Positions 1,951 through 38,772 of a stretch of DNA of 64,000 bases are shown here, one piece after another. Both the position numbers and the translations under genes were made by a program. Source of the DNA: Bacillota bacterium (GTDB lineage Bacteria > Bacillota > Bacilli > Paenibacillales > NBRC-103111); contig JAEWMH010000080.1 in assembly GCA_023393235.1 (NCBI GenBank), positions 5,157 to 69,156 of the forward strand, given 5' to 3'. Numbering within the stretch: position 1 is the stretch's first letter; each line of letters opens with the position of its first letter. The notes under the pieces were generated by a model. The model did not search any database, was not told where the DNA came from, and saw only the letters and a list, made by a program, of their open reading frames with translations.

Positions 1951-4362
1951 CTATTCCACACTCTTCAGCGCCTCTACCATCACGATACGGTTCAGCGTCC
2001 GGTTGGTAATCCAATTGACAGCGACGGCGAAGCAGAAGGTTAGCGCCGCGGTCATCATATAGCTCACCGGCTTCACAGAAACGGCGAAGTGGATGGAGGG
2101 CATGTTCAGTGCAACCGTAAGGAATCCGCTGATGAACCGGCCCACGGGCAAGCCGATGAGAATACCCGCCGCGGTGAGCAGCAGGGTTTCTTTATTCACA
2201 TACTGGTGCACTTCCTTATCGTAGAAGCCCAGCACCTTGATGGTAGCCAGCTCCCGGTTGCGCTCCGAGATGTTCGTGTTAGACAGGGTGAACAGGACCA
2301 CAAAGGCCAACCCGCCAGCCCTCACAAAGATCAGCAGCAGCACGGCGTTCATCAGGTCAAAGCCGTATTCGTCTAATAAAGCTGCCGTGCTTACCGAAGT
2401 TAACACGGCATCGTTGTCCAGCAGCTTCTCCGCATAGGCAGCCTGCTCCTGACCGGATAGTGTTGGCAGATGAGCCAACACACCATTCGGGGCATAACCT
2501 CCGAACAGGGCCTCATATTGCTTCTGCGGTACATAGACACTGTTGCCCAGATAATTCTTCACCACATGGGAGATGGTCACCTGATGCTGCTTGAGCCCCA
2601 TATCCTCCAGGGTAAGGGAGTCCCCTGCCTTCACACCCAGAATACGCGCTGCGTTCTGGGTGAGGAGCACGCCCTCCCCCTCCGGCTGGACCAGCTTCCC
2701 GTCCAGATTCTCCAAGCGGATGTATTCCTCTGCTGCCGCTCCATCGGGAAATGCCATTAGCTGCATCTTTTCCGCGTCTCCGCCGGAGTTCAGCAGCTTC
2801 ACACTATCTACCCGCACATCCAGATAGTCCTCAGCCTTGCCGTCGGCGGCCAGCTGCTCCACCAGCTTGCCCTGTTGAGTCTCCTGGGCTACCGCCATAA
2901 GGTCATAACGGTAGACCTCCTGATACTGCCGGGGGCCCAGCCGGTCTATGGAATCCTTAATGGCGAAGCCGCACAGGATCAGGGCGGTGCAGCCCATAAT
3001 GCCGCCTACCGTCATGAACAGGCGCTTCTTGTAACGGAACAGGTTTCGTACCGTCACCTTGTTCAGGAATTTCAGCCGGTTCCAAATCACCGGAAGCCGC
3101 TCCAGGAACACACGGGAGCCGGCACGTGGCGCCTTGGGACGCATAAGCGAAGCGGGCATCTGCCGAAGCTCGCTGCGGCAGGCCAGGGCCGTCGCCCCGA
3201 CAATGGCCACCAGAAACAGAAGAACGCCTCCTACCCCATAGACTAGATCAAACCGCAGCTCATAATGGGGAACGGTATACAGCTCCTCCAGCACAAGGGA
3301 GATAAATTTGGGCATCAGGACAAAGCCGAACACGTCTCCCAGCAGTCCTCCCAACAGGCTGGCCATCAAGGCAAACAGCAGGTATTTGCGGTAGATGGCT
3401 CCATTGCTGAAGCCCAGCGCCTTATAGGTCCCGATCAGCCCGCGCTCCTCCTCCACCATCCGGGTCATGGAGGTCAGGCTCATCAGCACAGCCACCAGCA
3501 GGAAAATCACCGGAAACACCTTGCCGACAGCTTCAATGGAGGACAGATCATTCACCATGCTGGAATAGCTGTCCAGCGAGGTCCGGTCCTGGACATACCA
3601 TAGGGCGGCACCGCTGTTTGAGCCAGCCTGCCCCCGCAGCCCCTCTATTCCGCTAATAACCTTCTGTACCACCTGTTTGTATTCATCCGAAAAGGTATCT
3701 AACTCTTTCGTACCGGCCACCGTCAGATAAGCCGCAGTAAACATCGGGCTGCCGCCAGGCACCGCTGGTATTGGCTCCGCCGTGAAAAAGGTGTAGTCCG
3801 CGGCGGCATTGGCCCGGAAAACACTGGCCATACCCCCGGCCTGGATGTTCATCGGATCCATGGCTACACCTGTAATGGTATAGGTCTCATTGCCGATAGG
3901 TAGAGAACCGCCCACAGATGCGCCGCTTTCCTCGATGTACTTCCGGTTAACGGCAAGCTCCCTGCTTCCGGAGGGCAGAACCCCTTCCAGCATATAGGGG
4001 GCATTGATGCCCTTGGCGCTAAGTGTCTTCAATTCTGCGCTTTTGCCCACGCCGTCCACATCCGTCTCCACCGTCCGGCTGAAGGCTCCTTCCACCGCCT
4101 CCACACCCTCCACCCGGCTGACCGTCTTCACGTCTTCCTCCGTCAGCCCCATGGGAGACATGATCCGGATGTCGAATAAATGCTGCCGGTCATAGAACTT
4201 GTCTGCCGAATAATACATATCCATGCAGGAAGCGTACAGGCCGGTAAGCATCCCGACCCCCAGCGCGGTAATGATCATGATGGACATAAACCGTTTCCAC
4301 CCTTTGCGGATGGAACGCCAAATATCGTTCCGGTAAGCCTTGTTCATCCCCTCACCACTCAA
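1951..4362 (-). CDS. FtsX-family (MacB-type) ABC transporter permease with two FtsX modules
   Basis: 803 aa. N-terminal TM helix, large loop, then clusters of TM helices twice. Start overlaps the stop of the upstream ATPase. Confidence 0.85.
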   Translation of the reverse strand: MSGEGMNKAYRNDIWRSIRKGWKRFMSIMIITALGVGMLTGLYASCMDMYYSADKFYDRQHLFDIRIMSPMGLTEEDVKTVSRVEGVEAVEGAFSRTVETDVDGVGKSAELKTLSAKGINAPYMLEGVLPSGSRELAVNRKYIEESGASVGGSLPIGNETYTITGVAMDPMNIQAGGMASVFRANAAADYTFFTAEPIPAVPGGSPMFTAAYLTVAGTKELDTFSDEYKQVVQKVISGIEGLRGQAGSNSGAALWYVQDRTSLDSYSSMVNDLSSIEAVGKVFPVIFLLVAVLMSLTSMTRMVEEERGLIGTYKALGFSNGAIYRKYLLFALMASLLGGLLGDVFGFVLMPKFISLVLEELYTVPHYELRFDLVYGVGGVLLFLVAIVGATALACRSELRQMPASLMRPKAPRAGSRVFLERLPVIWNRLKFLNKVTVRNLFRYKKRLFMTVGGIMGCTALILCGFAIKDSIDRLGPRQYQEVYRYDLMAVAQETQQGKLVEQLAADGKAEDYLDVRVDSVKLLNSGGDAEKMQLMAFPDGAAAEEYIRLENLDGKLVQPEGEGVLLTQNAARILGVKAGDSLTLEDMGLKQHQVTISHVVKNYLGNSVYVPQKQYEALFGGYAPNGVLAHLPTLSGQEQAAYAEKLLDNDAVLTSVSTAALLDEYGFDLMNAVLLLIFVRAGGLAFVVLFTLSNTNISERNRELATIKVLGFYDKEVHQYVNKETLLLTAAGILIGLPVGRFISGFLTVALNMPSIHFAVSVKPVSYMMTAALTFCFAVAVNWITNRTLNRIVMVEALKSVE

Positions 4363-8795: not shown

Positions 8796-9671
8796 TTGCC
8801 CGTGAGCACCGTATTAACCTGCGGGAATATAAACAAGAGGTACGGCCGGACGATTGCCTTGCGTAATTTGAGCCTGCAGCTGCAGGAGAATGTCATTTAT
8901 GGTTTGTTAGGCCGCAACGGAGCAGGGAAAACCACCCTGCTGAACATGATCGCAGGCGGAATCTTTCCGGATAGCGGAACCCTGGAGGTATGGGGGAAGA
9001 GGCTGAAGAAGGGCGAACTTCCGAGGAATTTCTGTTATGTGCGCGACCATACCAGCCCCTTCGGGGGAGCACGGGTAATGGAGGTGCTTCAGTTTGCATC
9101 CGGCTTCCATCCGAATTGGGCTTGGCCATTGGCCCATGAACTGCTGGAGACCTTCCGGATCGATCCCCGTAAGAAAATGAGCCAGCTTTCCAAAGGAACG
9201 GCATCGCTTGTTGGAAACATCATCGGTTTGGCCAGCCGGGCGCCGCTGACAGTTTTTGATGAGCCGGTGCTGGGACTGGATGTTTTGATGCGGGAAAAAT
9301 TCTATAGAGCACTTATGGAGGATTATGCCAACCACCCCCGCACCATCTTCCTGTCCACCCATCTGATTGATGAAATTGCGCCGGTGGTGGAGAAGGTATT
9401 TATTATTGAAGCCGGGTCCGTCCTTCTCCATGATGAGATGGACCGGATTCGGATGGGCGCGCTTATGCTCCGGGGAAAATCCGAGGCGGTGGCTACGTTT
9501 ACGGCCGGGAAGAGAGTTATCCATACAGAAGCATATGGCCGCGGTACCCTTGCCGCTATTTATGAACAGCTGACGGAAGAGGATTTCATGCGTGCGCGGG
9601 AGTTGGATATTTCCATTGAAGGCCTGACGCTGCAGAAGTTCTTCGCGTATCTGGTTGAGGGAGGGCAATAA
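8796..9671 (+). CDS. ABC transporter ATP-binding protein (YtrB-like)
   Basis: Walker A GRNGAGKTT, Walker B LTVFDEPVLGLD. TTG start 1 nt after the GntR stop. Confidence 0.85.
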   Translation: MPVSTVLTCGNINKRYGRTIALRNLSLQLQENVIYGLLGRNGAGKTTLLNMIAGGIFPDSGTLEVWGKRLKKGELPRNFCYVRDHTSPFGGARVMEVLQFASGFHPNWAWPLAHELLETFRIDPRKKMSQLSKGTASLVGNIIGLASRAPLTVFDEPVLGLDVLMREKFYRALMEDYANHPRTIFLSTHLIDEIAPVVEKVFIIEAGSVLLHDEMDRIRMGALMLRGKSEAVATFTAGKRVIHTEAYGRGTLAAIYEQLTEEDFMRARELDISIEGLTLQKFFAYLVEGGQ

Positions 9672-9672
9672 A

Positions 9673-10356
9673 TTGAAGGCATGGACGGTTCATCTTAAAC
9701 CGGCTTTTGTGCAAATGCGGATGTATGTCTGGGGTGTTATCCTGCTAATCCTGCTGGGAAGAGTGGCGGATCTGATCGTCACACTCAGTATAAAAAGCGG
9801 CTTCACCATGCGTCTTTCGGACGGCAATATGCTGCTGCTGATCCTGCTTCTTACCGCGGTTATCCTTCCCCTCACGTATTTCAACCGTATCATTTATTTG
9901 GGTGCAAGCCGGCAGCAGTATTTCAATGGGCTGCATTTTGTATTCGGTGTCTGGGCCGCGGGTATCGCTTTATTCAATTCCTTGTGGTACCAGCTCGAAG
10001 TCCATATATTCCGGGATTTCACGGGCATTGTGGACATGATCGAGGCCTTCCATTGGACAGACTTTGGGGTGGTGGGGTCATTCCTGTATCAAGCCGCTTT
10101 TTATGTCATGGTAATGGCCCTTCTTTCCATGCTGGCCTCCGGCTACTCCCACCCAGTGGGTTGGCTGCTGTGGGTCCTGCTGATTACCGCTATTCCGGTC
10201 GGAACCGCCATCCCTTCCTTCCGCGTCCATGTGGCAGCCTTCTTCAAAGCTCTGTTGTTCAATAGCTCGCTTCTAACAGGCGTGCTTTTTAACCTTGCCC
10301 TCTATGTGCTGTTCGCAGCCGGAGGCTGGTGGTTTACCCAGAGAAGAACGTATTAA
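9673..10356 (+). CDS. polytopic membrane protein (putative permease partner of the YtrB-like ATPase)
   Basis: ORF 9655..10356. Preferred TTG start at 9673 behind GAGGGAGGG. About 6 hydrophobic helices, no recognisable motif. Confidence 0.65.
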   Translation: MKAWTVHLKPAFVQMRMYVWGVILLILLGRVADLIVTLSIKSGFTMRLSDGNMLLLILLLTAVILPLTYFNRIIYLGASRQQYFNGLHFVFGVWAAGIALFNSLWYQLEVHIFRDFTGIVDMIEAFHWTDFGVVGSFLYQAAFYVMVMALLSMLASGYSHPVGWLLWVLLITAIPVGTAIPSFRVHVAAFFKALLFNSSLLTGVLFNLALYVLFAAGGWWFTQRRTY

Positions 10357-27906: not shown

Positions 27907-28348
27907 ACATGACCGGTTCTAACCCCCGGATACGCTGGTAAAGGCCACGTACAGTCTCTGCCAGCCGGCGGTCGCTATCCGGATTCAGGTCCCTTAACGT
28001 TTCGGCTGTAGTTTGGAGTAACTCGCGGATGTTCTCTAAATGCTCGATCTTCTTCCTTATCTCCGCATGTTTGGCGTCCAGGAAGGAAGCAAGCTCCTCG
28101 CAATCAGCAGGTTCGATGTGCTCCATTCTGTTAAGATGAAACTTACTTTTGATTTCCTCCAGGGTAAAATCCGCGTATTGCAAAATTTGAATGTTCATCA
28201 AATCCATTAGATCATGCTTGGAATAGCGACGGTAACGGTTTTCCTCACGCAAAGGGGATACCATTCCCTTCCGGTCGTAATACCGGAGTGTATCTGTGGG
28301 AATCTGGAGCATCCGGGAAACTTCTTGAATCGAATAGTGTTTATCCAT
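27875..28348 (-). CDS. MerR-family transcriptional regulator
   Basis: YSIQEVSRMLQIPTDTLRYYDRKGMV followed by a coiled-coil region. Confidence 0.9.
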   Translation of the reverse strand: MDKHYSIQEVSRMLQIPTDTLRYYDRKGMVSPLREENRYRRYSKHDLMDLMNIQILQYADFTLEEIKSKFHLNRMEHIEPADCEELASFLDAKHAEIRKKIEHLENIRELLQTTAETLRDLNPDSDRRLAETVRGLYQRIRGLEPVMCEEGSDGHQD

Positions 28349-28354
28349 ACATCC

Positions 28355-28385
28355 AGAATAACATTGGAGCGCAGTTCAATGTCAA
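28355..28385 (-). promoter_or_regulatory. MerR-type promoter: TTGACA, 19-nt spacer containing a dyad, TATTCT
   Basis: Minus strand reads cTTGACAttgaactgcgctccaatgtTATTCT. The dyad is ACATTG-N10-CAATGT. The -10 ends 6 nt before the merR ATG. Confidence 0.6.
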
Positions 28386-28490
28386 GAAGGGTTTGTAAAA
28401 GTTTTCCTTCGCCTCCGGAAAGGCAGTTATCCGTCCTGAATTTTGATGCTACAATAGTGAGGAAAGCAATGGAAGGAAAGGAGAATCCCC

Positions 28491-29009
28491 ATGATTCCGC
28501 AAACCCTTGAAGAATTGGACCGTATCCGGGAACAATGCAAATCCATGGTCAACAAACGGGCGACTACCTCCGCCGCTACAGCAGTGGTTCCCCTTCCCGG
28601 TGTAGATATAGGCGCAGATCTTGCGATCATAATGGAGCTGCTGCCGGCAATCAACCGCAAGTTCGGCCTGTCCCCGGAGCAAATCGATCAACTGGACGGA
28701 GATATGAAGGGCCGGATTCTGGTCGTAATTTCATCCGTCGGCAGCAAGCTGGTGGGCAAGGTCATCACCAAGGAAATCCTCACCCTCCTGCTCAAAAAAG
28801 TAGGCATGCGGGTAACCGTCAAGCAAGTCGCCAAGTTCGTCCCGTTTGTCGGACAAGCTGTCTCTGCTGGGATCAGCTTCGGAGCCATGAAATACCTGGG
28901 AAACTCCCATATCGACGAATGTTATGACGTGTGCAGGCAGTTTATTGAGATGGAACAAAACCGCATGGAAACCATGGAATCCGGGGATGAGCCCAAGGTC
29001 CTCCCTTAG
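28491..29009 (+). CDS. DUF697-like protein (assignment from memory)
   Basis: ATTSAATAVVPLPGVDIGADLAIIMELLPAINRKFGL resembles the DUF697 core. RBS is AAGGAGAA. Confidence 0.55.
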   Translation: MIPQTLEELDRIREQCKSMVNKRATTSAATAVVPLPGVDIGADLAIIMELLPAINRKFGLSPEQIDQLDGDMKGRILVVISSVGSKLVGKVITKEILTLLLKKVGMRVTVKQVAKFVPFVGQAVSAGISFGAMKYLGNSHIDECYDVCRQFIEMEQNRMETMESGDEPKVLP

Positions 29010-29035
29010 AGGATAGTGTTAGAGGAGGATATCCA

Positions 29036-29137
29036 ATGAAACGTGCTTTTTTGATTCTATGGATGCTTTTGCCGCTAAGCGCATGCGAGGCAGAACCCGC
29101 AGGAGTTGTCTGCCTGGGATTATTATGCGGTATATAA
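29036..29137 (+). CDS. 33-aa putative lipoprotein/secreted Cys-rich peptide
   Basis: AGAGGAGGA then ATG. MKRAFLILWMLLPLSAC (lipobox LSAC) followed by EAEPAGVVCLGLLCGI. Confidence 0.4.
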   Translation: MKRAFLILWMLLPLSACEAEPAGVVCLGLLCGI

Positions 29138-29783
29138 ACTCTGTGCAATAGCTATGACGGACTATTTATAAGGAGGCCTGGAATGGATATGGATCTGGCC
29201 GCGTATTTCGAGTTTGTTAGAGGGCTTCTTCTATCTTAAATTGAATGCCCATGTGAAAAATGGTACAGGGAGCTTTGCTGAGCCCATAGAATTTTCCGGT
29301 AAAATTTGTAACAAAAGGTTATTCATTACGCGCGGCATGAATCAGAAAATCAACAATCCTGATATTTGGAACAATCCGGAATGGGTCAAGTCGCTGGGGG
29401 AGAGAGCGGAATAAAATAATCTGTTAGATAACAATCCAGTTCTGGGGTATTTTTTAAAAGTTTAATCCAATGGAAACACATCCCGCTTTGATACGTGATA
29501 TCCATATATGGGTAGGCGTGTTGAGGCTTTTTTTCATAGGAATAGAGCGCGCGAAGTGGCGCAGTTTAATGCGCGAGCTAAAGATTGTCGCAGGGATAAA
29601 TGCATGAGGGCAGAATCCAGACAGGCAGTGGGGTATGTGGGTCAGCAACAATTGCTAGTGAAAAAAATAGATTAAAGAAAACTTATACCGCATCCTCCAC
29701 CAATAAACTACTTTAATTGGAATTTTCAAGTAGAATATAGTAACATTTAGAATGTTGGTAAATAAAATCTAGGAGGAATGGAA

Positions 29784-30239
29784 ATGATTAAAGGTACTGC
29801 CAAAAAAATTATGGCTACTGGTATCATTTTAGGTTCATTAGTTTTTACTTCCCAAGCAGCTTTCGCAGCAACAATCGTTGATACTGGCAATAACGATGAC
29901 TATTATTCCGCACAACAAATGCAATATGGTGATATAGCAATGGGGAAGATAAATAGTGCGACTGATAAAGACTGGTATTATATTCAGACCGGGCCAAACG
30001 ATGGTGGTCGGACAATGACAGTCCATTTAACAAACCCCAGTAACTACCATTACATATTCGTTGTAAACAAAAATGATGCTGAGCCCGTTATTGTAACAGA
30101 CCTAAATCCCGGTAACAATAACGAATGGGTATCGTTTACTGTTCAAGCTAATACAAGATACAATTTTGGTGTTTTAAAATCATCTTTTTCCGGATTTGAC
30201 CCCAATGCGCTTTACTTCTTAAGCCCAACAATTTTTTAG
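29784..30239 (+). CDS. small secreted protein with a pre-peptidase C-terminal (PPC)-like motif
   Basis: Signal peptide ...SQAAFA|AT. GNNDDYYSAQQMQYGDIAMGKINSATDKDWYYIQ resembles the PPC signature (N..A..I..G.I....D.DWY.F). AGGAGGA RBS. AT-rich. Confidence 0.6.
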   Translation: MIKGTAKKIMATGIILGSLVFTSQAAFAATIVDTGNNDDYYSAQQMQYGDIAMGKINSATDKDWYYIQTGPNDGGRTMTVHLTNPSNYHYIFVVNKNDAEPVIVTDLNPGNNNEWVSFTVQANTRYNFGVLKSSFSGFDPNALYFLSPTIF

Positions 30240-30248
30240 TAGAAATTA

Positions 30249-30278
30249 AAACCGCTCAAAACAATGAGCGGTTTTTTT
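30249..30278 (+). terminator. intrinsic terminator
   Basis: ACCGCTCA-aaacaa-TGAGCGGT followed by T7. Confidence 0.88.
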
Positions 30279-30336
30279 ATTATGTTCTATGTAAATGTCG
30301 GAACATGGAATGACGGAATTTTGGTATTAGATTGAT

Positions 30337-30364
30337 GAAATAAGGCGGCTCAAATTCGTTAGAA
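30337..30364. repeat. solo unit of the intergenic repeat family
   Basis: gaaataaggcggctcaaattcgttagaa is one reverse-orientation unit. Confidence 0.5.
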
Positions 30365-30464
30365 AACCTCCGCCGCTCCGCTCACCACCCGCCATTGCCC
30401 GCTTCGCGCCTTCCCCTCCCTAAAAAAGGGCGCTGATCCTATCGGTCAACGCCCTGATTCGTTT

Positions 30465-33400
30465 TCAATCCAGCTTCAGCCATTCGAAAAAATCATCATT
30501 TTCCATCTTAAAAAATGCTTTCGTAAACCGGACGAATTCCCGAGTGTCCAGTTGGTGGTTACGGTAGGTTGTCCAGTAAGCATGGAGAAAGTCAAACCCC
30601 TTCTCCCGGCCGTCATCAAACGTATCCAGCAATTCCTTAAACCGTATGGTCGGTTGAGCGTATAGACTACTAAGGATGCCACTGTCTTGATATTCCGGCA
30701 AAGGTAAGTTGGATGCCTTGAAATTGGGTCTGTAATGCTGCTCGGCATACGAAAAATCATTCAAAAAAAGAGATGTGGCAAGCTCGGTCATCCCCTCATC
30801 CAGCCACCCCTCATGGTACGGATCGCTGCTAACCACGCCGTAGAACCACTGATGCGCAAGCTCATGAACGATGGCATGCCGGGACATCTCCACCTCTCCC
30901 GATATGCCTACCGTTACCACCCCCGGATATTCCATGGACCCGGTTTCATTCAGAATCAGATCCACCTGCTTGTGCGGATAGGGACCGATACGGGTGTTGA
31001 AAACTTCCATTGCATCAGCGGCCAGTTCCAGGGCTTCCTTCATCCGGTTCTGATCGGCCTTCCTCCCCCATACCCGGATTTCCATATCATTCTGTTGCTT
31101 GGATATCGCTGTCATATCATCTGTAACAGCAATGAGCAATTCTTTGATGTGCTCCCCGCGAAGCTTTCCCTTCCCGGCCGTTTTACCAGGATCCTGACCG
31201 GATGATGTGATCAGCTCCATCCCTTCCGGAAGGTCGTAATGCAAGGTAAAATCACTGAAATCCGTATGATACGATTCGCTGATTCGATTGTAAGGCTCCT
31301 TGTTCCAGCCCTGATGATAGGTAGCCAGCATCGGGTACCACTGGGCCAAAACAGAAGTGCCGCCTACCTGAGTGAATCGAATCCCGTCTTCGGGAACCTT
31401 GAAGCGGTATCTCAGCTCGATCACAGCTTGGCCGTTGGGAGCAAGCTTTTGCGGAAGGGGCAGAGTCAACGTATCCCCTTCCAATTGGAAGTTGGACGGT
31501 TTTCCATTCAAACGAAGCTCTTCTATGCTGAACTCGGCGGACTTCCGATAGGTTTGCTTGTTTTGAGGTTCGATAAATACGTTAGGGATCATATAAAACA
31601 CCATTTTATCCCATTTATCCGTGGATGCGTTGGTAGCTGTAACGGTGGCTGAAGCTGTAAATACACCCTTCTCAACCATCTGCAACGATAAATCATAAAC
31701 CGCGTGGCTGCCCTGAGATACGAATTGGGGAATAAAGCCGGTTATATCCCCAATCTCGCCCGCTGAATACATGGGACTTCCTGCGGGTGCTGGTGCCAGG
31801 GATTGCTTCGTTACCACAGAAGGCTGACGGATGGAGACCATATGAAACACCGAAAAAGCAGCCAGCAATACTGCCATCCCAGCTATGGCAATCAACGCCC
31901 CTTTCATTCGTCTTTCGGTTTTTTGATGGGTCGAATAGTTTCCGGCCAAGCCCTTTTTGACGGATAAACGAACAGCTTTTTCCGCAGGCAGCCATGCTCC
32001 GATTGTCCCGGTCAGTACCGGTACAGCCGCTAATGGTCCGAGATACCATAGATCCTGGACAGGAAATTCCCGGTAAAATGCTGTGAGGATAAGAAATCCT
32101 GCAATCCCTGCCACAACACCTGCACAACATCCGGTAAGGAAGCCTTCCGCCAGCACAAGTCTGCGGATTGGGTTGCTGCGCCAGCCCAAAGCCTGGAGCA
32201 ACGCGATTTCCTGCTTCCGCTCCGACACGTTCTGCCAGATAATTTCTGCTGTGGTGAACAAGGCAATCAACAGGCAGATGCCGATGGCCCAATAATGCGA
32301 AGAACCGATGGCTCCCACGGCGTATTGTCCGAACCAGCTGGAATAGAAGACTCCTTTTAGCCGTACCGTCACGAATAGAAAGAACATCAGCAGAGTGGTC
32401 GGCATGGTGATGGACAGAACAGCAAGGGTGTTTCGCTTGAGCTTTCCGGCAAAATGGCTCAAGGCCACGTGGAACACACCGCGCACCTTGGTAAGCCTTC
32501 TGGCCCTGGTGGATATTTCGCCGGAACGGATGGCTTCCATCGGGGTAATTCGCCGGACCAATAGCAGCACCGGCATCCCGCCCAACCCATAAATAGCGAA
32601 GCCTGCCAGCCCCGTCACCGCAAACCGGGTCAGGGAGAGCTCCGATTGGCCAAGAAAGACGAATGCCCCCAGCAATGACCAAATCAGGAATGCTACAAAC
32701 CCGCCGATAATGATGTTTTCCAACATAATCAAGCGGATGATATGAGCCGGTCGCCACCCGGTGGAAAGCATCAGTGCGAAATTCTGTTTCCGGACTAGGA
32801 AGGACACCAGGTTGGTTGCTGCGACGTAAAGGACTGCCATCAAATTAACCAGCAGTAACATGCCTGAGAACCCAATTTGCATTTCCTTCACGATAACGAA
32901 TTTCGTCCCAAGCTTAATCCATTGCTGCTCCAGCCAGCCCAGGGCGGGCGTTGATCCGCTAGCCGGTACATGAATCAGGACCGGCTGAGGCGATGAGCCG
33001 AAGACGATGTCGGCTTCAAGGCCCGTTTGCTCCCGAATCTCAGAAGCAATCTGCTCCAGCTTCTTCTGACTATCCTCAGACACTTCCGATAAACCTGCCG
33101 CCTTGATCCGGATGACAGAAATCGGCTTGTCGGTGAGGATATTGGCCGCCGCCTCTATCGTCGTCAACATGGTGGGCGGGCTGGTCAGAAGCCCAAGGGG
33201 ATTATTAACCGGCTTAAGGGTAGCCGGAGGATTCAGCGGACGCATAGCACCATCAAAAAGCAACTTAGCCGACGGGGGGCGGTACGTATCCATGGGCAGC
33301 TCTGCGAGTGGATCCATGGCCATCTGCAGCTTCAACGGGTCGTAAAATCCAATGAAGATAGGCTTAACGAAATAACCGTTCATCCAAGAGCCTGGCGAGA

Positions 33401-34517
33401 CTTTGCGCTCATATTCTTCGTATGGACGAAAAACATCCGATGTGAACCACTGATAGATTTCGGGAGTTGAAAAGCGTTGCGCTTGATAAGAGTATGGCCA
33501 CCGATCCGGATAGGCATTTGCAATGGGATCCAATACAAGCGGTGTCGCTTTTTGCAAGACATGCCAAGTTCCAAACGCAATACTGCGATCCCTCGTAAAC
33601 TTCTCTTGTACTTGCTCCGTGCGGAAGGTATAGGTTTTCTCTGCGACGGGCCGAAGCTTATCCAGATAGGCCCTGCCACCGTTTGCTTTCACGGATTCCA
33701 TGGAACGGCTTGCTTGTTCTTTGTCGGAGAAGGGGAGATCCAATCTTTCAAATTGAAATTGATAGGTTTTATCCGTAAAATTTTGTGTGCTCATCAGAAC
33801 AGGCAGTTCAACGAATTCGGGGTCAGTCTCATGCTTAACGATCCGGCTAGCATCTGATTCCTTGTAGTACCGAGAGCCTGAATCATTCTGCACGCTATGG
33901 TCCAGCCCAACTAATCTCGCCTCTTCCGTTGGATCGATACCCGCCATTAAGAAAAGATCATTCATTATCAAATCTTCATCATTGGAATATGTTGAAATAC
34001 CATAAGAGACCGCATCCCTTGAAATATTTCCCACATACCAGGGACCACGTACAAAATAACTGCTATAAGAAAATGCATTTTGATCCTGTATCCCGTTATA
34101 AGCCGTGGCCGTCATCGTCTTCCGATAAACTCCCGGCTCGTCAATAGTTGCTTTTTCTGGAAATACAATATTTAGATTCACATACCCCAGCAACGAAAGC
34201 GGCGCGGCGATATCAACTCCCGGAATATCCTTGATTCGCTCCCACTGCTCCAAGGTTATACCACCGGAAATGCCGCTTTGGATGTTGGGCTCGATCAGCT
34301 TATTCTGAGGGTCCGTGAGCTGGGAGCCGGGAGGACGCACCAAAATGTCGTAGGAAACTTTCCACTTCTGCTGGACCGTATTCATGATCGTCCCTTTATT
34401 CGACTCCGACAGGTGGTATAGCAGGACAAGCCCTGAGCTGATAATGCTGATTCCAAGGAGTAAAATCAGAAAACGTTCCTTGTCCCGCCACCACTCCCGC
34501 CAAAGATAGGTTAGCAT
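30465..34517 (-). CDS. fusion protein: double-module FtsX (MacB-type) ABC permease + extra TM helix + C-terminal M1-family zinc metallopeptidase domain
   Basis: 1350 aa. TM clusters flank LSTGWRPAHIIRL and LQALGWRSNPIRRL (FtsX-like). C-terminal part has GSMEYPG then HELAH-X18-E (HELAHQWFYGVVSSDPYHEGWLDEG; HELAH codons at 30852..30866). Confidence 0.85.
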   Translation of the reverse strand: MLTYLWREWWRDKERFLILLLGISIISSGLVLLYHLSESNKGTIMNTVQQKWKVSYDILVRPPGSQLTDPQNKLIEPNIQSGISGGITLEQWERIKDIPGVDIAAPLSLLGYVNLNIVFPEKATIDEPGVYRKTMTATAYNGIQDQNAFSYSSYFVRGPWYVGNISRDAVSYGISTYSNDEDLIMNDLFLMAGIDPTEEARLVGLDHSVQNDSGSRYYKESDASRIVKHETDPEFVELPVLMSTQNFTDKTYQFQFERLDLPFSDKEQASRSMESVKANGGRAYLDKLRPVAEKTYTFRTEQVQEKFTRDRSIAFGTWHVLQKATPLVLDPIANAYPDRWPYSYQAQRFSTPEIYQWFTSDVFRPYEEYERKVSPGSWMNGYFVKPIFIGFYDPLKLQMAMDPLAELPMDTYRPPSAKLLFDGAMRPLNPPATLKPVNNPLGLLTSPPTMLTTIEAAANILTDKPISVIRIKAAGLSEVSEDSQKKLEQIASEIREQTGLEADIVFGSSPQPVLIHVPASGSTPALGWLEQQWIKLGTKFVIVKEMQIGFSGMLLLVNLMAVLYVAATNLVSFLVRKQNFALMLSTGWRPAHIIRLIMLENIIIGGFVAFLIWSLLGAFVFLGQSELSLTRFAVTGLAGFAIYGLGGMPVLLLVRRITPMEAIRSGEISTRARRLTKVRGVFHVALSHFAGKLKRNTLAVLSITMPTTLLMFFLFVTVRLKGVFYSSWFGQYAVGAIGSSHYWAIGICLLIALFTTAEIIWQNVSERKQEIALLQALGWRSNPIRRLVLAEGFLTGCCAGVVAGIAGFLILTAFYREFPVQDLWYLGPLAAVPVLTGTIGAWLPAEKAVRLSVKKGLAGNYSTHQKTERRMKGALIAIAGMAVLLAAFSVFHMVSIRQPSVVTKQSLAPAPAGSPMYSAGEIGDITGFIPQFVSQGSHAVYDLSLQMVEKGVFTASATVTATNASTDKWDKMVFYMIPNVFIEPQNKQTYRKSAEFSIEELRLNGKPSNFQLEGDTLTLPLPQKLAPNGQAVIELRYRFKVPEDGIRFTQVGGTSVLAQWYPMLATYHQGWNKEPYNRISESYHTDFSDFTLHYDLPEGMELITSSGQDPGKTAGKGKLRGEHIKELLIAVTDDMTAISKQQNDMEIRVWGRKADQNRMKEALELAADAMEVFNTRIGPYPHKQVDLILNETGSMEYPGVVTVGISGEVEMSRHAIVHELAHQWFYGVVSSDPYHEGWLDEGMTELATSLFLNDFSYAEQHYRPNFKASNLPLPEYQDSGILSSLYAQPTIRFKELLDTFDDGREKGFDFLHAYWTTYRNHQLDTREFVRFTKAFFKMENDDFFEWLKLD

Positions 34518-35218
34518 TGGACTACACCCACAGTTGCGTTGTCCCTGATCATCGCCCCGTCTTTGAGTTCTATGATCCGGTCTCCCCGGGAGGCCAATTG
34601 AAGATCATGCGTTACCATCAGGACACCACATCCATTTTCGCGCTGCACCCGTTGCATCAGGAAAAAAATCGCTTCGCCGTTCTTGGAGTCCAGGTTCCCT
34701 GTAGGCTCGTCCGCTAAAAGCCAAGCCGGTTTATTGACCAACGCACGTGCAATCGCTACCCGCTGCTGCTCTCCCCCGGACAATTGGGAAGGAAGCAGCT
34801 TGCTTTTGTCTGCAAGGCCAACCTGGTCCAGCAGCTCGAGCGCCCTATTGGTTTTATGATACGGAACCTTGCGCGGAAACAGCGGCGCCATCACATTCTC
34901 CATCGCCGTCAAGGTCGGGAGCAGCTGAAAGCTTTGAAAAACAAAACCGATGTTGGCAAAGCGGAAGTCAGCCAGCTTTTTTCGTTTGAGCTGCGCAGGT
35001 TCAACATAGTCATAGATAATCCGTCCAGCTGACGGACAGTCCAGGGTTCCGATTAAACTAAGCAGCGTGGATTTACCGGAACCGGATGCTCCAACTATAA
35101 TGGTGAGCTGGCCCTTATGGAAGGTCGCACTTACGGGGCTCAATAGGGTAGTGTTCAAACCGTCGCCGACGATGGATTTTTCCACTCCCAGCAGTTGAAT
35201 CGTGTTCATGGTCAGCAT
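34511..35218 (-). CDS. MacB/LolD-type ABC transporter ATP-binding protein
   Basis: [29 protein letters not shown]. Its stop overlaps the fusion-gene ATG by 7 nt (ATGCTAA). Confidence 0.92.
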   Translation of the reverse strand: MLTMNTIQLLGVEKSIVGDGLNTTLLSPVSATFHKGQLTIIVGASGSGKSTLLSLIGTLDCPSAGRIIYDYVEPAQLKRKKLADFRFANIGFVFQSFQLLPTLTAMENVMAPLFPRKVPYHKTNRALELLDQVGLADKSKLLPSQLSGGEQQRVAIARALVNKPAWLLADEPTGNLDSKNGEAIFFLMQRVQRENGCGVLMVTHDLQLASRGDRIIELKDGAMIRDNATVGVVQC

Positions 35219-35332
35219 CCTTTCGCCAGAATTGTAAACATTATACTACTTTTTCCATGTCTTTATAGTACATATCATACGGCTACGTTTCAATTGTTTT
35301 TTTACAATTTATTCCCAAATAAACATTGATAC

Positions 35333-35371
35333 AAAAAAAAGGATGAGTTCTAGATAACTCAGAACTCATCC
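35333..35371 (-). terminator. intrinsic terminator of the membrane-protein gene
   Basis: GGATGAGTTCT ... AGAACTCATCC followed by T8 on the minus strand. Confidence 0.85.
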
Positions 35372-35419
35372 TTTATGTATTGATTGCACACTCTTGTGGA
35401 AACTTGTATACTGCCTTAC

Positions 35420-36067
35420 TTATAAAATAAATACAAGAGCGATCATCACATAAGAATATCGGATATTCTTTTTTAGCAATATGTATACCATGCCAAATAG
35501 AAGGGACATGAAGACAGCATAAATTCCTGTCATCGTTCCTTGTAGCAAAATATGGATAAGTCCCCAGGTGAGCGCAAGAAATATTCCGCCGTAGGGCAGG
35601 CTGTCTTTTTTAAACAGCGTTTCCCCGAACTTTTGGCCGAAAGCAATCGTCAGCAGAATCAAAACAGCCTCAAACCAGTAATAGATATTCTGAAAAACGG
35701 AGTTAACGATACCCTTGTATTCTTGAACAGGCTTTAACCCGCCCCAAGCGATCGTTGTTACGATAATGGCAATAGCGGATATCCCCACAGCTAATAACCA
35801 CCGCTTCGAATCCGGCATCCCGTTCAACTTCATCAAATCAAAGGCGTATTTTTTTCTCGAAAGCCTTACCAAAAAAAGTGCCATGCTCCCCCACAATATG
35901 CATGTGAGCGTCCAGTGGATACAATGATGAACGAGGGTATAATCAGAGCCTTTCACCCCCAATATCATCGGAAGCAGCATAGACAATACAACCTCAAGAC
36001 CAAACCCTGCAAAAGCATATAACCCTAAAGCAAGATAATCGCTTGCTCCCACTTTCGTTTCTCTCAT
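35420..36067 (-). CDS. polytopic membrane protein (hypothetical), AT-rich
   Basis: ORF to 36136. Preferred ATG at 36067 behind GGAGGA (MRETKVG). About 6 TM helices. Confidence 0.65.
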   Translation of the reverse strand: MRETKVGASDYLALGLYAFAGFGLEVVLSMLLPMILGVKGSDYTLVHHCIHWTLTCILWGSMALFLVRLSRKKYAFDLMKLNGMPDSKRWLLAVGISAIAIIVTTIAWGGLKPVQEYKGIVNSVFQNIYYWFEAVLILLTIAFGQKFGETLFKKDSLPYGGIFLALTWGLIHILLQGTMTGIYAVFMSLLFGMVYILLKKNIRYSYVMIALVFIL

Positions 36068-36219
36068 TGGTATCCTCCAATTTAACGAGTTAACAGAGCT
36101 ACTTCTCATATTGTAGATGGTTCGACACCAGCACAATCAATCCTTTTTTTCATCTCCATTTATTTACTGAATCTATCAGAATAAAGAGTTATTTTATGAA
36201 AATTCCCATTATGATTATA

Positions 36220-36310
36220 GCGCGGACGAACCCCTTACAAGGGGCACATACGGCTCCAATAAAAAAACGTTGACCCCATTGGTCAACGCCCTTTTATTAT
36301 GGAGCCTAGG
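36220..36310. repeat. duplicate of the tRNA-Ala 3' end + terminator module (distal copy)
   Basis: gcgcggacgaaccccttacaagggg...ggctccaataaaaaaacgttgacc...ggtcaacgcccttttattatggagcctagg parallels 36412..36513. Confidence 0.8.
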
Positions 36311-36411
36311 TGCATGTCTGAATCTCGATTGAAATGGCTGACGACGACGACTCGAAGAAGCAGAGCGCAGCTGTTGATTCAGACGCCGTGCTCGTCCTCT
36401 GACGCTCTCTG

Positions 36412-36513
36412 CGCGCGGGCGAACCCCTTGCAGGGGCCCCATCCCCGTTTTCGGCTCCATAATAAAAGGGCGTTGACCCTAATGGTCAACGCCCTTTTAT
36501 TATGGAGCCTAGG
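36412..36513. repeat. tRNA-Ala 3' end + terminator module (proximal copy); contains the tRNA terminator hairpin
   Basis: Near-perfect palindrome GGCTCCATAATAAAAGGGCGTTGACC-cta-a-GGTCAACGCCCTTTTATTATGGAGCC at 36453..36509. Confidence 0.8.
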
Positions 36514-36575
36514 GGGGTCGACCCCCTGACCTCATCGCTGCCAGCGATGCGCTCTCCCAGCTGAGCTAAGGCCCC
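36503..36575 (-). tRNA. tRNA-Ala (anticodon GGC), no encoded CCA
   Basis: Cloverleaf folded by hand: acceptor GGGGCCT/AGGCTCC with G3:U70, D arm GCTC-AGCTGGGA-GAGC, anticodon arm CATCG-CTGGCAG-CGATG, T arm AGGGG-GTCGACC-CCCCT (G at position 54). Confidence 0.8.
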
Positions 36576-36608
36576 GTAGCTTCCGGTATTTCTGCCGGAC
36601 AAGAACTA

Positions 36609-36637
36609 ATTATACATAGGCTTTTTGCAAAACGCAA
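36609..36637 (-). promoter_or_regulatory. sigma-A promoter of tRNA-Ala
   Basis: Minus strand reads TTGCGT, 17 nt, TATAAT. The -10 lies about 33 nt upstream of the tRNA 5' end. Confidence 0.7.
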
Positions 36638-36717
36638 GAGGGATTTTTCGCGTTTCTGAGCTCTATCTGATATGGAATCGCCGCAACAAAAAGGTAACTC
36701 TACCAGCAGGAAAAGGG

Positions 36718-36950
36718 TCATCCGTTCTGTTATTTCGCGGCTGTTTTTTGCCGGTATTTATTCTAACGGAAGCTACAGCCGCTATATCGCCAATTTGGCC
36801 ATTCCTTTTTTTCTAACGGCGGCCAGCGCCGCTATTTGGTCTTTTTGCCTAGATTTCCGCTTCAAAAGGAACAAATAACGGCTGCTGCTTCCGTTAGATT
36901 TTCAACAAGGCTGTTTTACCGGAAATAGCGGCGCTCACCGCCGTTAGAAT
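36718..36950. repeat. nested-palindrome intergenic repeat, copy E
   Basis: ttctaacggaagctacagccgctatatcgcc, ttctaacggcggccagcgccgctatttgg, then aaataacggctgctgcttccgttaga and ggaaatagcggcgctcaccgccgttagaa. Confidence 0.85.
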
Positions 36951-37080
36951 CAACCGCAGTCCATCGGCCACCGTCGGAAGTGAAAATTTCGGGTACAAGC
37001 GCAGCGTTTCCTACAATCGGGGGGCCTCATCACTCCCCGGTGGATACCACGTCCTGTTGCTACACCCCAGAGTTCACCCA

Positions 37081-38772
37081 TCACTGCAGGCTGTCCATTC
37101 CCCAGCCTGCGGGATATTCCGCCGACAGGCTGACGGGCAGCCTGCCCTGCGGCGGCACCCGGCCCGCCAGTACCTTGGCGGCGGCCAACAGCATAGGCGG
37201 CCTGTTTTCGTAGAAGGCCGCATACGCATGGACCTGCGGCATCGCCAGCAGGTCATAGGGATTGCGCAGCGCCACAGCCGTGACGGTGGCGCCGGGCAAA
37301 GCGGCCAGCGCCTGCACCAGGCTGGCCTGCCCCAAAGCAAAGGCGGCGTTGTACACGCCCGCCACAATCTGTAGGCGGCCGCCCCGCGCCGCCGCCAGCA
37401 CGGCCGCTTGCTCCGCCGCCGTCGGCTCCGTGCCGATGACCATCTCGCACACATCCGCCACATACGGAGCCAACGCCCTCCCCAGGGTGAACTCCTGGGG
37501 AATCACCTCATCCACCTCGGTGCTCTGCCGCACCTCCGGCCAAATCACCAGCGTCGGCACATCTCCGCGCAGGGGCAGTGCACCGGGCTCTGCCCGGACT
37601 AAAGTGACGCAGCGCTCGGCCGTTTCCTCCACCCACGCCACATGCTCTTTGCATCCTATTGTCCCGACACCTTTTGTTTTCGCCTCAAACCACGCTTCCT
37701 CCCGGCGCAGCTTGGCCCGTACAATCCGTGCCACCGCTTCATCGATCCGCTCCATAGGCAGCTCTCCGCTTAACGCCGCCCCGTACAGCGCCTCCAGCGC
37801 CTCCACCTGCCGGTCCTCCCGGTGGCTGACCAGCACCATATCTGCTCCGGCGGCTACCGCCAGCACAGCTCCCCGGCCAACACCCACCGTTTGGGAGATG
37901 GCATTCATCTCCAGGCAGTCGGTGACAACAACACCGTCAAACCCAAGCTCCTCCCGCAGCAGCCCGCTTAAGATAGCGGGAGATAACGTAGCAGCCACCC
38001 CGCTGGGCTCCCATGCGGGAAACCGCACATGGGCCGTCATCACTACGTCCACACCGGCCTCCATTGCGCTTCGAAACGGCGGCAGCTCCACCTGCTCCAG
38101 CCGCTCCCGGCTATGTGGTACAAGCGGCAGCTCATGATGGGAATCTGCCGAAGTATCCCCATGCCCGGGAAAATGCTTTGCGCAAGCGCTTACACCCGCC
38201 TCCTGAAACCCTTGAACCGCAGCCGCTCCCAACGCCGCAACCAGCTCCGGGTCCTCCCCGAAGGACCGGACTCCGACTACCGGGTTTGCGGGATTATTGT
38301 TTACATCCACACAAGGGGCAAAATTCAGATTAATCCCCATCTGACGCAATTCCACACCGGATATCCGGGCCGCTTCATACGCCAGCTCCGATTTCCCCGC
38401 CGCGCCCAAGGCCATGTTGCCGGGCACCACCGCCGCATCCCTGTCGATACGGGCCACCATGCCGCCCTCCTGATCCACCGCAATCCAAAGCGGCAGCTCG
38501 CCCAAAGCATTGTTAGCCTCCTGCAAGCTCCGGGACAGCTCCGCCACCTCCGCAGCCGTCCCGATATTCCGCCGGAAGTAGATAACGCCCCCCACCCGGT
38601 AATCCCGGATTAACCGGAGAATACTCTCTGATGGGACAGTCCCGTCAAACCCGCACATCACCATCTGCCCCAGCTTTTGCCGGAGAGACCATGCCGCAAG
38701 CTCCTGCAGGGAGGCAGTCTCGTCCGTCACCCTATTTTCACTCATCTCAATATCACGTCCTTTTACGCTCAC
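37081..38772 (-). CDS. glycoside hydrolase family 3, NagZ-like beta-N-acetylhexosaminidase (cytoplasmic)
   Basis: KHFPGHGDTSADSH motif. No signal peptide. 563 aa with an additional C-terminal domain. Confidence 0.85.
   Translation of the reverse strand: MSVKGRDIEMSENRVTDETASLQELAAWSLRQKLGQMVMCGFDGTVPSESILRLIRDYRVGGVIYFRRNIGTAAEVAELSRSLQEANNALGELPLWIAVDQEGGMVARIDRDAAVVPGNMALGAAGKSELAYEAARISGVELRQMGINLNFAPCVDVNNNPANPVVGVRSFGEDPELVAALGAAAVQGFQEAGVSACAKHFPGHGDTSADSHHELPLVPHSRERLEQVELPPFRSAMEAGVDVVMTAHVRFPAWEPSGVAATLSPAILSGLLREELGFDGVVVTDCLEMNAISQTVGVGRGAVLAVAAGADMVLVSHREDRQVEALEALYGAALSGELPMERIDEAVARIVRAKLRREEAWFEAKTKGVGTIGCKEHVAWVEETAERCVTLVRAEPGALPLRGDVPTLVIWPEVRQSTEVDEVIPQEFTLGRALAPYVADVCEMVIGTEPTAAEQAAVLAAARGGRLQIVAGVYNAAFALGQASLVQALAALPGATVTAVALRNPYDLLAMPQVHAYAAFYENRPPMLLAAAKVLAGRVPPQGRLPVSLSAEYPAGWGMDSLQ

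Follow-up and report, generated by a model that had tools for sequence, protein, structure and literature searches.

What kind of protein carries an ATP-binding cassette (ABC) transporter permease and a zinc peptidase in one chain, is such a protein real, and what might the pairing be for? The question is raised by a 1350-codon gene in a 64,000-nucleotide stretch of a Bacillota bacterium (Paenibacillales; contig JAEWMH010000080.1), the whole of which we call the window. A first reading made from the letters alone, here the sequence-only reading, had described the gene as an FtsX (MacB-type) permease fused to a complete M1 peptidase domain and coupled to an ABC ATPase gene. We are almost certain that the two genes are an autonomous operon for a type VII (MacB/FtsX-fold) ABC machine, in which a permease of 4+4 transmembrane (TM) helices with a conserved extracytoplasmic domain (ECD) continues through a ninth helix (TM9) and a linker into a two-domain M1 peptidase that lies outside the cytoplasm and whose active site is intact. 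Both open reading frames (ORFs) lie on the minus strand:

30465..34517, minus strand: fusion gene, duplicated FtsX-type permease plus TM9 plus two-domain M1 peptidase, 1350 amino acids (aa) (ORF, Pfam, homologues)
34511..35218, minus strand: ABC ATPase (nucleotide-binding domain) of LolD/MacB/FtsE type, 235 aa as listed (Pfam ABC_tran, 113 bits)

The fusion ORF is uninterrupted over its 1350 codons, and its ATG overlaps the stop of the MacB/LolD-type ATPase gene by 7 nt (ATGCTAA), both as first described. Pfam recognised FtsX (PF02687) at aa 744-852 with 46.5 bits (cut-off 25.5) and, as had been expected, Peptidase_M1 (PF01433) at aa 1162-1312 with 35.8 bits (cut-off 27.7). FtsX had been expected twice; the second module is the one above the cut-off, while the first module remained below it (21 bits, E 3.7e-4). 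The MacB_PCD domain (PF12704), also expected, gave no Pfam match even at E<=10. We take the ORF not to be a product of chance, because a reading frame of 1350 codons with two above-cut-off Pfam domains has full-length homologues in several genera, and the protein belongs both to the MacB/FtsX fold superfamily and to peptidase family M1. There is no exact database record of the window protein, the nearest entry (P0001) being 99% identical.

In principle a frameshift could create a long ORF of this kind, or the assembly could have joined the genes of a permease and a peptidase wrongly, and the only basis for suspecting this is that free-standing, TM-anchored M1 genes exist. Against such an artefact stand 23 full-length fused homologues with 34-99% identity to the window protein, 21 of them of 1337-1382 aa and two of about 1520 aa (a subgroup of 1519-1522 aa). 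Their sources are metagenomes and genomes of Paenibacillus, Cohnella, Sporosarcina and Psychrobacillus, as independent isolates, metagenome-assembled genomes and read-set assemblies, and their conservation runs unbroken through TM8, TM9 and the linker. With the same architecture in 23 proteins from independent assemblies and genera, the assembly-made fusion against which the sequence-only reading had cautioned is excluded, and we regard an artefact of any kind as having practically no chance.

The layout of the permease part was taken from hydropathy, charge counts and an AlphaFold2 (AF2) model of aa 1-900 (pLDDT 84.5, 69-sequence alignment), which agree:

34416..34472, minus strand: TM1, aa 16-34 (hydropathy; AF2 helix 13-51)
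32877..34415, minus strand: large ECD, aa 35-547, 513 aa (confident AF2 alpha/beta model)
32556..32876, minus strand: first FtsX module, TM2-TM4, aa 548-654 (Pfam FtsX below cut-off, as above; AF2 helices 538-575, 590-621, 629-654)
Within the first module: predicted coupling helix 1, about aa 577-589, KQNFALMLSTGWR (AF2 short helix 577-585)
31983..32426, minus strand: second FtsX module, TM5-TM8, aa 698-845 (Pfam FtsX 46.5 bits; match to MacB 5nik; AF2)
Within the second module: predicted coupling helix 2, about aa 768-781, KQEIALLQALGWRS (AF2 short helix 768-776)

Thus TM1 is followed by a hydrophilic stretch at aa 35-547 by hydropathy, which is the loop of about 500 aa noticed at first, and the two FtsX-like TM clusters flank the segments quoted for them, with LSTGWRPAHIIRL between TM2 and TM3 and LQALGWRSNPIRRL between TM6 and TM7. 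In the second module TM5 spans aa 698-716 and TM6-TM8 reach to about aa 845, and the outside loop is vestigial, a beta-hairpin at aa 723-736. A K/R-rich cytoplasmic connector (aa 655-697; 11 K/R vs 2 D/E) joins the modules and a second K/R-rich cytoplasmic loop (aa 846-872) precedes TM9. Relatives of the permease also show two FtsX stretches. By their position the short helices (LSTGWRP..., LQALGWRS...) are predicted to be the coupling helices of the MacB fold, and from the model the permease reads as a single-chain 4+4-TM FtsX pseudo-dimer, which resembles YbbP and BceB except that the two linking helices of those proteins are missing. By likeness to YbbAP, two ATPase copies per permease are to be expected. 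Foldseek searches with the model returned LolE, MacB, YbbP, HrtB, FtsX, YtrF and BceB with probability of about 1.0, the best global match being YbbP (TMq 0.33-0.34). The type VII module is defined by four TM helices, with a large ECD inserted after the first and a coupling helix after the second, all of which are present here, and Pfam, NCBIfam and Foldseek agree on a MacB/FtsX-type pair of ATPase and permease, as first read.

The ECD had no Pfam match at E<=10 and no sequence match in the PDB by profile search. It carries most of the invariant columns of the 69-sequence family alignment and is the most conserved part of the family, and on this alignment it is probably the seat of the specific function. 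The segment ISVIRIK...TGLEADIVF looks like the beta-alpha-beta unit of a Porter domain, by eye only. Whole-chain Foldseek alignments span the ECD, but with low TM-scores dominated by the TM part.

Between permease and peptidase lie two further elements:

31836..31901, minus strand: TM9, aa 873-894, extra helix predicted to take the chain back outside (hydropathy; AF2 helix 865-896)
31716..31835, minus strand: flexible linker, aa 895-934, Pro/Ser/Ala-rich (pLDDT <50 at model residues 38-55, aa 897-914)

The one extra hydrophobic helix of the first reading, GALIAIAGMAVLLAAFSVFHMV, is TM9. All 23 fused homologues conserve a hydrophobic stretch at this place, and the counterpart of TM9 in free-standing M1 homologues is their N-terminal signal anchor. 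The linker is about 40 aa long and variable in sequence, the distance from TM9 to Y941 being 42-51 aa in 19 of the 23 homologues, and two of them have an insertion of about 160 aa at this place. The M1 domain is predicted to lie outside the cell for two reasons independent of each other: an N-terminus on the inside puts every K/R-rich loop in the cytoplasm, from where TM9 leads out, and the free-standing proteins most closely related to the module start with a signal anchor or with the signal peptide of a lipoprotein. Charge pattern and homologues thus both speak for the earlier suggestion that the odd helix places the peptidase outside. By the same comparison TM9 and the linker appear to have been signal anchor and stalk when the anchored peptidase was still a protein of its own, and we read the evolution of the fusion as the joining of a membrane-anchored extracellular M1 gene, anchor included, to the 3' end of a permease gene.

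The peptidase module was modelled as aa 860-1350 (AF2 pLDDT 88.4, pTM 0.83). The model shows the TM9 helix, a disordered stretch, a beta-sandwich domain and then a helical catalytic domain, with these features:

31062..31715, minus strand: M1 N-terminal beta-sandwich domain, aa 935-1152 (AF2 pLDDT about 90-97; profile alignment to LTA4H residues 49-432)
30468..31061, minus strand: M1 catalytic (thermolysin-like) domain, aa 1153-1350 (Pfam, AF2, Foldseek, profile alignment)
30921..30941, minus strand: GSMEYPG, aa 1193-1199, a variant GxMEN exopeptidase motif (opposite GGMENPC in the LTA4H alignment)
30795..30866, minus strand: HELAH-X18-E zinc/catalytic motif, H1218, E1219, H1222, E1241 (aligns with HEISH...E of LTA4H)
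30660..30662, minus strand: Y1286, aligned with the M1 catalytic Tyr (family profile, slYaqp opposite vpYEKG of LTA4H)

The motifs stand as first read, GSMEYPG at aa 1193-1199, HELAH 25 residues further on at 1218 and E1241 after X18, and with beta-domain, catalytic domain and catalytic residues present the M1 domain is indeed complete. The family profile aligns with LTA4H as ssMEYPg with GGMENPC, as HEiAHqW...E with HEISHSW...E and as slYaqp with vpYEKG, in which the Tyr is the catalytic Tyr383. A pairwise alignment to glutamyl aminopeptidase had put an Arg at the position of the catalytic Tyr; judged by the LTA4H family-profile alignment it is out of register, and we rejected it. Y1286, the zinc-site residues and the MEYP residues are each at least 90% conserved across the 23 fused proteins. 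The sole departure from the canonical M1 signature is a Tyr for the Asn of GxMEN, found throughout the clade, while the Glu is kept. This Glu binds the free amino group of the substrate in M1 enzymes. By these residues the predicted activity is probably that of an aminopeptidase.

Foldseek matched the M1 model to ERAP1, ERAP2, IRAP and APN at E of about 1e-23, and the best target-normalised fit was the two-domain M1 enzyme of Deinococcus radiodurans (6IFG/6KOZ; TMt 0.64-0.68). No C-terminal helical domain (ERAP1_C / LTA4H_C) is present in the chain, which ends about 130 aa past the zinc site; this domain is not obligatory in M1. From the model the module is assigned to the two-domain subtype, like 6IFG/6KOZ. 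The D. radiodurans enzyme (PDB 6A8Z, 6IFG, 6KOZ; Agrawal et al., J Struct Biol 2019) likewise consists of a beta-domain and a catalytic domain with no C-terminal helical domain, and it matches in sequence at 6e-5 alone and 1.4e-12 with the family profile, at about 16-17% identity. It is a stand-alone chain of 474 aa, whereas the window module forms the C-terminus of a membrane protein of 1350 aa, and the exopeptidase motif of the D. radiodurans enzyme is LALET (6A8Z) in place of GSMEY.

The ATPase looks competent, with all motifs intact (Walker A at aa 43, Q-loop at 94, signature at 146, Walker B at 167, H-loop at 202). In NCBIfam it matched LolD (4e-64), YbbA (3e-56), FtsE (1e-54) and the MacB nucleotide-binding domain (3e-54), and no equivalog cut-off was reached. 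Its real start is probably the second ATG at 35209, which gives 232 aa, since AAAGGA precedes this ATG and 232 aa is the length of several homologues (in L081 and L083); the first ATG (35218) overlaps this likely ribosome-binding site (window 35200-35218). From their overlap the ATPase and permease genes are predicted to be translationally coupled. The signals around the pair are:

35265..35293, minus strand: predicted promoter-like site TTGAAA-17-TACTAT upstream of the ATPase gene (consensus match only)
35338..35374, minus strand: intrinsic terminator, 15-bp stem and T-run, at the end of the upstream membrane-protein gene; bounds the operon on its 5' side (terminator scan)
30248..30275, no strand assigned: bidirectional intrinsic terminator that serves the operon, as its 3' boundary, and the convergent gene 29778-30239 alike (terminator scan)

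The promoter-like site lies directly downstream of the preceding gene's terminator, and by these signals the pair reads as an autonomous two-gene operon in the window. An Rfam scan of 28000-37500 showed no riboswitch or leader RNA before the operon, a tRNA being the only match.

How common is the architecture? A HMMER scan with TM9 and M1 as query against 1.84 billion 50%-identity cluster representatives (E<=1e-30) gave 92 proteins, about 13-15 of them FtsX fusions and about 60 free-standing, the latter of roughly 475-600 aa. The fusion hence appears to be rare and, among named matches, confined to Bacillales. It is not unique, however: we find a small family, whose M1 clade also occurs free-standing or fused to OppC-type permeases. 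The database label of the fused proteins is only 'FtsX-like permease family protein'. Our literature searches found no published account of an FtsX-M1 fusion, and the 2018 review of the MacB family lists topological permutations with no enzyme fusion; this agrees with the sequence-only reading, to which no characterised example was known.

The C-terminus of the permease family is modular. Bare forms have about 860-900 aa; forms of about 1070-1100 aa (P0026-P0056) have TM9 and an extension of about 200 aa, which contains DUF4352 in P0027 and P0032; forms of about 1340-1380 aa have TM9 and M1; and forms of about 1520 aa (P0019/P0022/P0165) have TM9, an inserted domain of about 160 aa and then M1. 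Two proteins, P0050 (1303 aa) and P0059 (1228 aa), have longer C-terminal extensions without a domain match. In neighbour-joining trees, built without support values, M1-bearing permeases take at least three separate positions, one of them adjoining non-fused genes from long contigs (e.g. P0072 on a 658-kb Neobacillus contig), and the 1520-aa forms fall within the clade of proteins that bear the 200-aa extension. The tree of the M1 modules shows fused ones interleaved with free ones. The several positions in the one tree and the interleaving in the other suggest that the permease and M1 families were repeatedly joined or separated, by gain or loss of the pairing.

Free-standing M1 homologues, about 31-48% identical, are L001-L003, P0124, P0125 (L090:7001-8467), P0129, P0132 and P0142. 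The 477-aa protein of Paenibacillus lignilyticus (L001:9980-11413) begins with a basic stretch and a TM signal anchor, P0124 and P0125 also start with a signal anchor, and the 505-aa protein of Robertmurraya (L002:9785-11302) has a lipoprotein signal ending in LLVGC; a further free-standing copy is L003:10121-11251. Other free-standing homologues sit behind Cu_amine_oxidN1 stalk domains. A pattern scan with HE[IL]AHQWF and LAQWYPML, which are generic to M1, gave three close loci among the matches listed (L001-L003), all with free-standing M1.

We now turn to what the pairing might do, for which the argument is at present one of analogy. The closest likeness is to YbbAP-TesA of E. coli (PMC12646458, PDB 9GE6-9GE8). 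Both systems have a single-chain duplicated permease of FtsX/MacB fold and separately encoded ATPases, YbbP is the best global structural match of our permease model as given above, and the ATPase matches the YbbA model at 3e-56. YbbAP-TesA is a 2:1 complex with one extracytoplasmic hydrolase per complex, to which we liken the fusion system, known here from sequence. The differences are nevertheless clear. YbbP has 10 TM helices and two Porter/Sabre domains, whereas the window protein has 8+1 TM helices, a single 513-aa domain that shows no MacB_PCD signature, and only a vestige of the second loop. The hydrolase TesA, an SGNH esterase, is soluble and held non-covalently, whereas the window hydrolase is an M1 metallopeptidase fused via the extra TM helix, and the window host is Gram-positive and has no periplasm, unlike the host of YbbAP-TesA. 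In topology and partner enzyme the window system thus falls outside the YbbAP-TesA group, and the likeness is functional and architectural only.

According to a published proposal (PMC12646458), YbbAP pulls substrates out of the membrane and offers them to the bound hydrolase TesA. By analogy, we suggest that the fusion hard-wires the usual type VII scheme of an ABC mechanotransmitter and an extracytoplasmic partner. At the surface of the membrane the ECD would capture a peptide substrate, or draw it out, and would present it to the tethered peptidase, which would degrade it from the N-terminus in an 'extract and hydrolyse' manner as proposed for YbbAP-TesA. To this capture and hand-over to a tethered aminopeptidase we give somewhat less than an even chance. 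The role would be the removal or turnover of membrane-associated peptides, and here we can only guess; detoxification of linear antimicrobial peptides is a reasonable guess, as many Firmicute FtsX-type systems do so.

The second comparison is with FtsEX and its partners PcsB, CwlO, RipC and EnvC, which share an FtsX-fold permease and an FtsE-like ATPase with the window system. In FtsEX hydrolysis outside the cytoplasm is coupled to the cytoplasmic ATPase, and the same coupling could be assumed in the window system only by analogy. The sequence-only reading had gone this way and proposed a peptidase gated by ATP hydrolysis, in which the ATPase cycle would allosterically turn the attached hydrolase from an auto-inhibited into an active form and back, as in FtsEX-PcsB/CwlO/RipC/EnvC. 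A permease of FtsX fold that has two coupling helices and is paired with a competent ATPase would suit such a model. So would the two-domain M1, since enzymes of this subtype are without the C-terminal domain by which the M1 active site is normally capped (Agrawal et al. 2019), and the ECD, the most conserved part of the family, could take the place of this lid. Set against this, the permease is not an FtsX orthologue and lies outside the FtsEX family (TIGR00439, 15.6 bits vs a cut-off of 255), and FtsX is a homodimer whereas the window permease is a single-chain pseudo-dimer. The FtsEX partners are peptidoglycan hydrolases or coiled-coil adaptors bound non-covalently, whereas the window has a fused M1 peptidase, and a coiled-coil adaptor like the signal carriers in PcsB, EnvC and CwlO is seen in none of our AF2 models. 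As the linker is flexible and variable in sequence, the covalent link cannot carry force, and gating would therefore need a non-covalent contact between ECD and M1. Finally, free-standing homologues of about 39-48% identity appear functional without an ABC partner, which argues against intrinsic auto-inhibition. We consider gating unlikely.

The BceAB transporters of Firmicutes also have a single-chain duplicated FtsX permease, one large extracellular domain and a separate ATPase, and a peptide-related function of the window system is plausible by this likeness. BceB has 10 TM helices with its extracellular domain between TM7 and TM8, and is encoded with the BceRS two-component system. The window permease differs in its 8+1 TM helices, in its domain between TM1 and TM2 and in carrying a peptidase, which BceB does not. 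A two-component system conserved beside the operon was found neither in the window nor in related loci, and the system thus stands apart from BceAB. A peptidase covalently fused to an ABC membrane protein is otherwise known from the C39-peptidase ABC exporters of the peptidase-containing ABC transporter (PCAT)/SunT type. PCATs have the type IV exporter fold and a cytoplasmic N-terminal cysteine peptidase, which cleaves leaders before export. The window system differs in having the type VII fold and a metallopeptidase that is predicted to be extracytoplasmic and stands at the C-terminus.

A more modest explanation is that a general extracellular aminopeptidase, serving nutrition or peptide turnover, sits opportunistically on abundant permeases with no mechanical coupling, and that the job of the ABC part is unrelated. 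The flexible tether would allow this, and members of the same M1 clade are found free-standing, behind Cu_amine_oxidN1 cell-wall stalks, and at the C-terminus of BPD_transp_1/OppC-type permeases of a different fold (three among the proteins checked: P0144, 1195 aa; P0153, 800 aa, L091:7001-9403; P0197, 869 aa). OppC-type permeases are type I ABC peptide importers, with a fold unrelated to FtsX. In L091 the OppC-M1 fusion gene (P0153) follows an OppB-like permease gene, and no ATPase or binding-protein gene is adjacent. A Peptidase_S8 (subtilase) gene follows the free-standing M1 gene in L002 and another lies just upstream of the fused copy in L083, which hints at general extracellular proteolysis. 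On the other side, the module retains its own TM anchor and would gain no anchoring benefit from a fusion; since the free-standing M1 is already TM-anchored, what the fusion adds is proximity and a fixed stoichiometry. The fusion partners seen are all ABC permeases, and the FtsX partner is always of the same subfamily. Moreover, the FtsX pairing occurs at several tree positions, and the architecture persists over 34-99% identity and several genera. Such co-localisation seems to us rather doubtful, although less so than gating. As the free M1 is already anchored and the pairing is recurrent, we prefer a working partnership, as in extraction and hand-over, to mere anchoring. That the ATPase and the fusion gene are the only unit conserved in related loci we also count for a functional coupling.

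Several observations nevertheless weigh against extraction and hand-over. Two fused members have degenerate active sites at the positions of window aa 1218-1241, HGGIAR...LSSG in P0018 (Paenibacillus sp. KN14-4R) and HQVAH in P0010, with the M1 domain otherwise kept; by sequence they are possibly pseudo-enzymes, and with the catalytic residues lost catalysis is therefore not universally required. The contact between ECD and M1 is putative, the linker being flexible and variable in sequence, and the OppC-type M1 fusions would fit a generic role of a 'peptidase near peptide traffic' equally well. There was no M1 gene near the non-fused permeases P0072, P0077 and P0026 and no FtsX or ABC gene beside the free M1 genes (L001-L003, P0125), so that the loci examined hold no split-gene pairing and hence no split-gene confirmation of an ABC-M1 partnership. 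No regulator, precursor-peptide, bacteriocin or immunity gene is conserved with the operon in related loci, where the neighbours differ each time. Some of the 'non-fused' entries may be fragments, as the contigs they lie on are only 3-4 kb long, which makes the number of joining or separation events uncertain.

The gene context bears on one further explanation, in which the ABC part would expel a secreted peptide such as a bacteriocin, pheromone or toxin and the aminopeptidase would trim the remnant of its N-terminal leader outside. The ATPase does resemble bacteriocin- and darobactin-associated ATPases of MacB type (DarD, 2e-53; lactococcin-972 type, 2e-52). In Cohnella pontilimi (L081:4329-7257) three genes on the same strand stand directly before the operon, and a phage-type integrase gene is close by. 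The products of the three, an ABC exporter of 602 aa, a membrane protein of MauE/DoxX type and a thioredoxin-like protein, look like an export set for disulfide (bacteriocin-like) peptides. This set is found in that locus only and is absent from the other loci examined. With no precursor-peptide or biosynthetic genes conserved beside the operon, and with the window operon alone between its terminators, we judge export and maturation to be very unlikely, and extraction and hand-over remains the reading we favour.

The sequence-only reading had also proposed that the neighbouring genes may be linked to the pair. On one side lies an AT-rich gene for a 238-aa polytopic membrane protein (35420-36136, minus strand), on the other an AT-rich gene for a 153-aa protein with a signal peptide (29778-30239, plus strand). 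Neither protein has a match in Pfam or NCBIfam, and the 'PPC-like' label once given to the latter finds no support there. Terminators separate both genes from the operon. In related loci (those of P0004, P0006, P0007 and P0024) the ATPase gene is the only gene conserved beside the fusion gene, and tblastn of nine window neighbours, including the MerR and DUF697 genes, against all fetched loci found no homologue near any relative. We therefore ruled out the flanking genes as members of the system by terminators and tblastn.

Some features of these loci were noted in passing. A tRNA-Ala(GGC) gene (36503-36575, minus strand) lies just upstream of the 35420-36136 gene, and the GC content is 0.40-0.54 over about 29-36.5 kb vs 0.55-0.66 over 37-60 kb; the low-GC stretch beside the tRNA may be a horizontally acquired segment. 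In L083 (P0004, 77% identical) the operon is bracketed by two genes for 189-aa SF0329-family (PF25753) proteins in the same orientation (3783-4352 and 9373-9942; also in L084), as if placed between duplicated genes. In Virgibacillus doumboii (L089:7001-10276, P0026) a 1091-aa permease relative has no ATPase gene called immediately upstream, unlike in the other loci examined.

What is new, against the literature found, is the covalent fusion of a hydrolase via an extra TM helix, the metallopeptidase as partner, the 8+1-TM layout with one 513-aa outside domain, and the parallel OppC-M1 fusions. As far as we found, neither a metallopeptidase partner nor a covalently fused hydrolase was known before in the type VII ABC class, and this would be the first of each. 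Type VII systems use cytoplasmic ATP for work outside the membrane, usually via a separate partner protein, and finding that partner has been the bottleneck; YbbAP was an orphan for years until TesA was identified (PMC12646458). With the partner in the same polypeptide, the pairing of enzyme and transporter is unambiguous and a 1:1 stoichiometry is fixed by the fusion. The system is also a tractable one in which to ask whether mechanotransmission delivers substrate to an extracellular hydrolase or gates it, as chromogenic peptidase assays are easy. Should the two activities merely be co-localised, the gain would be a modest one, in the annotation of proteins now labelled 'FtsX-like permease family protein'. 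The fusion nonetheless hints at ATP-dependent peptide degradation at the Gram-positive cell surface. We speculate, as a tentative possibility only, that it stands for a new functional class in Gram-positives, in which ATP-driven movement of the ECD feeds or uncovers a tethered M1 peptidase and so destroys specific surface peptides, whether linear antimicrobial or signalling ones. If this is true, the fusion would be a natural 'Rosetta stone', and the OppC-type fusions would reveal ABC permeases that carry their own extracellular peptide-processing enzyme.

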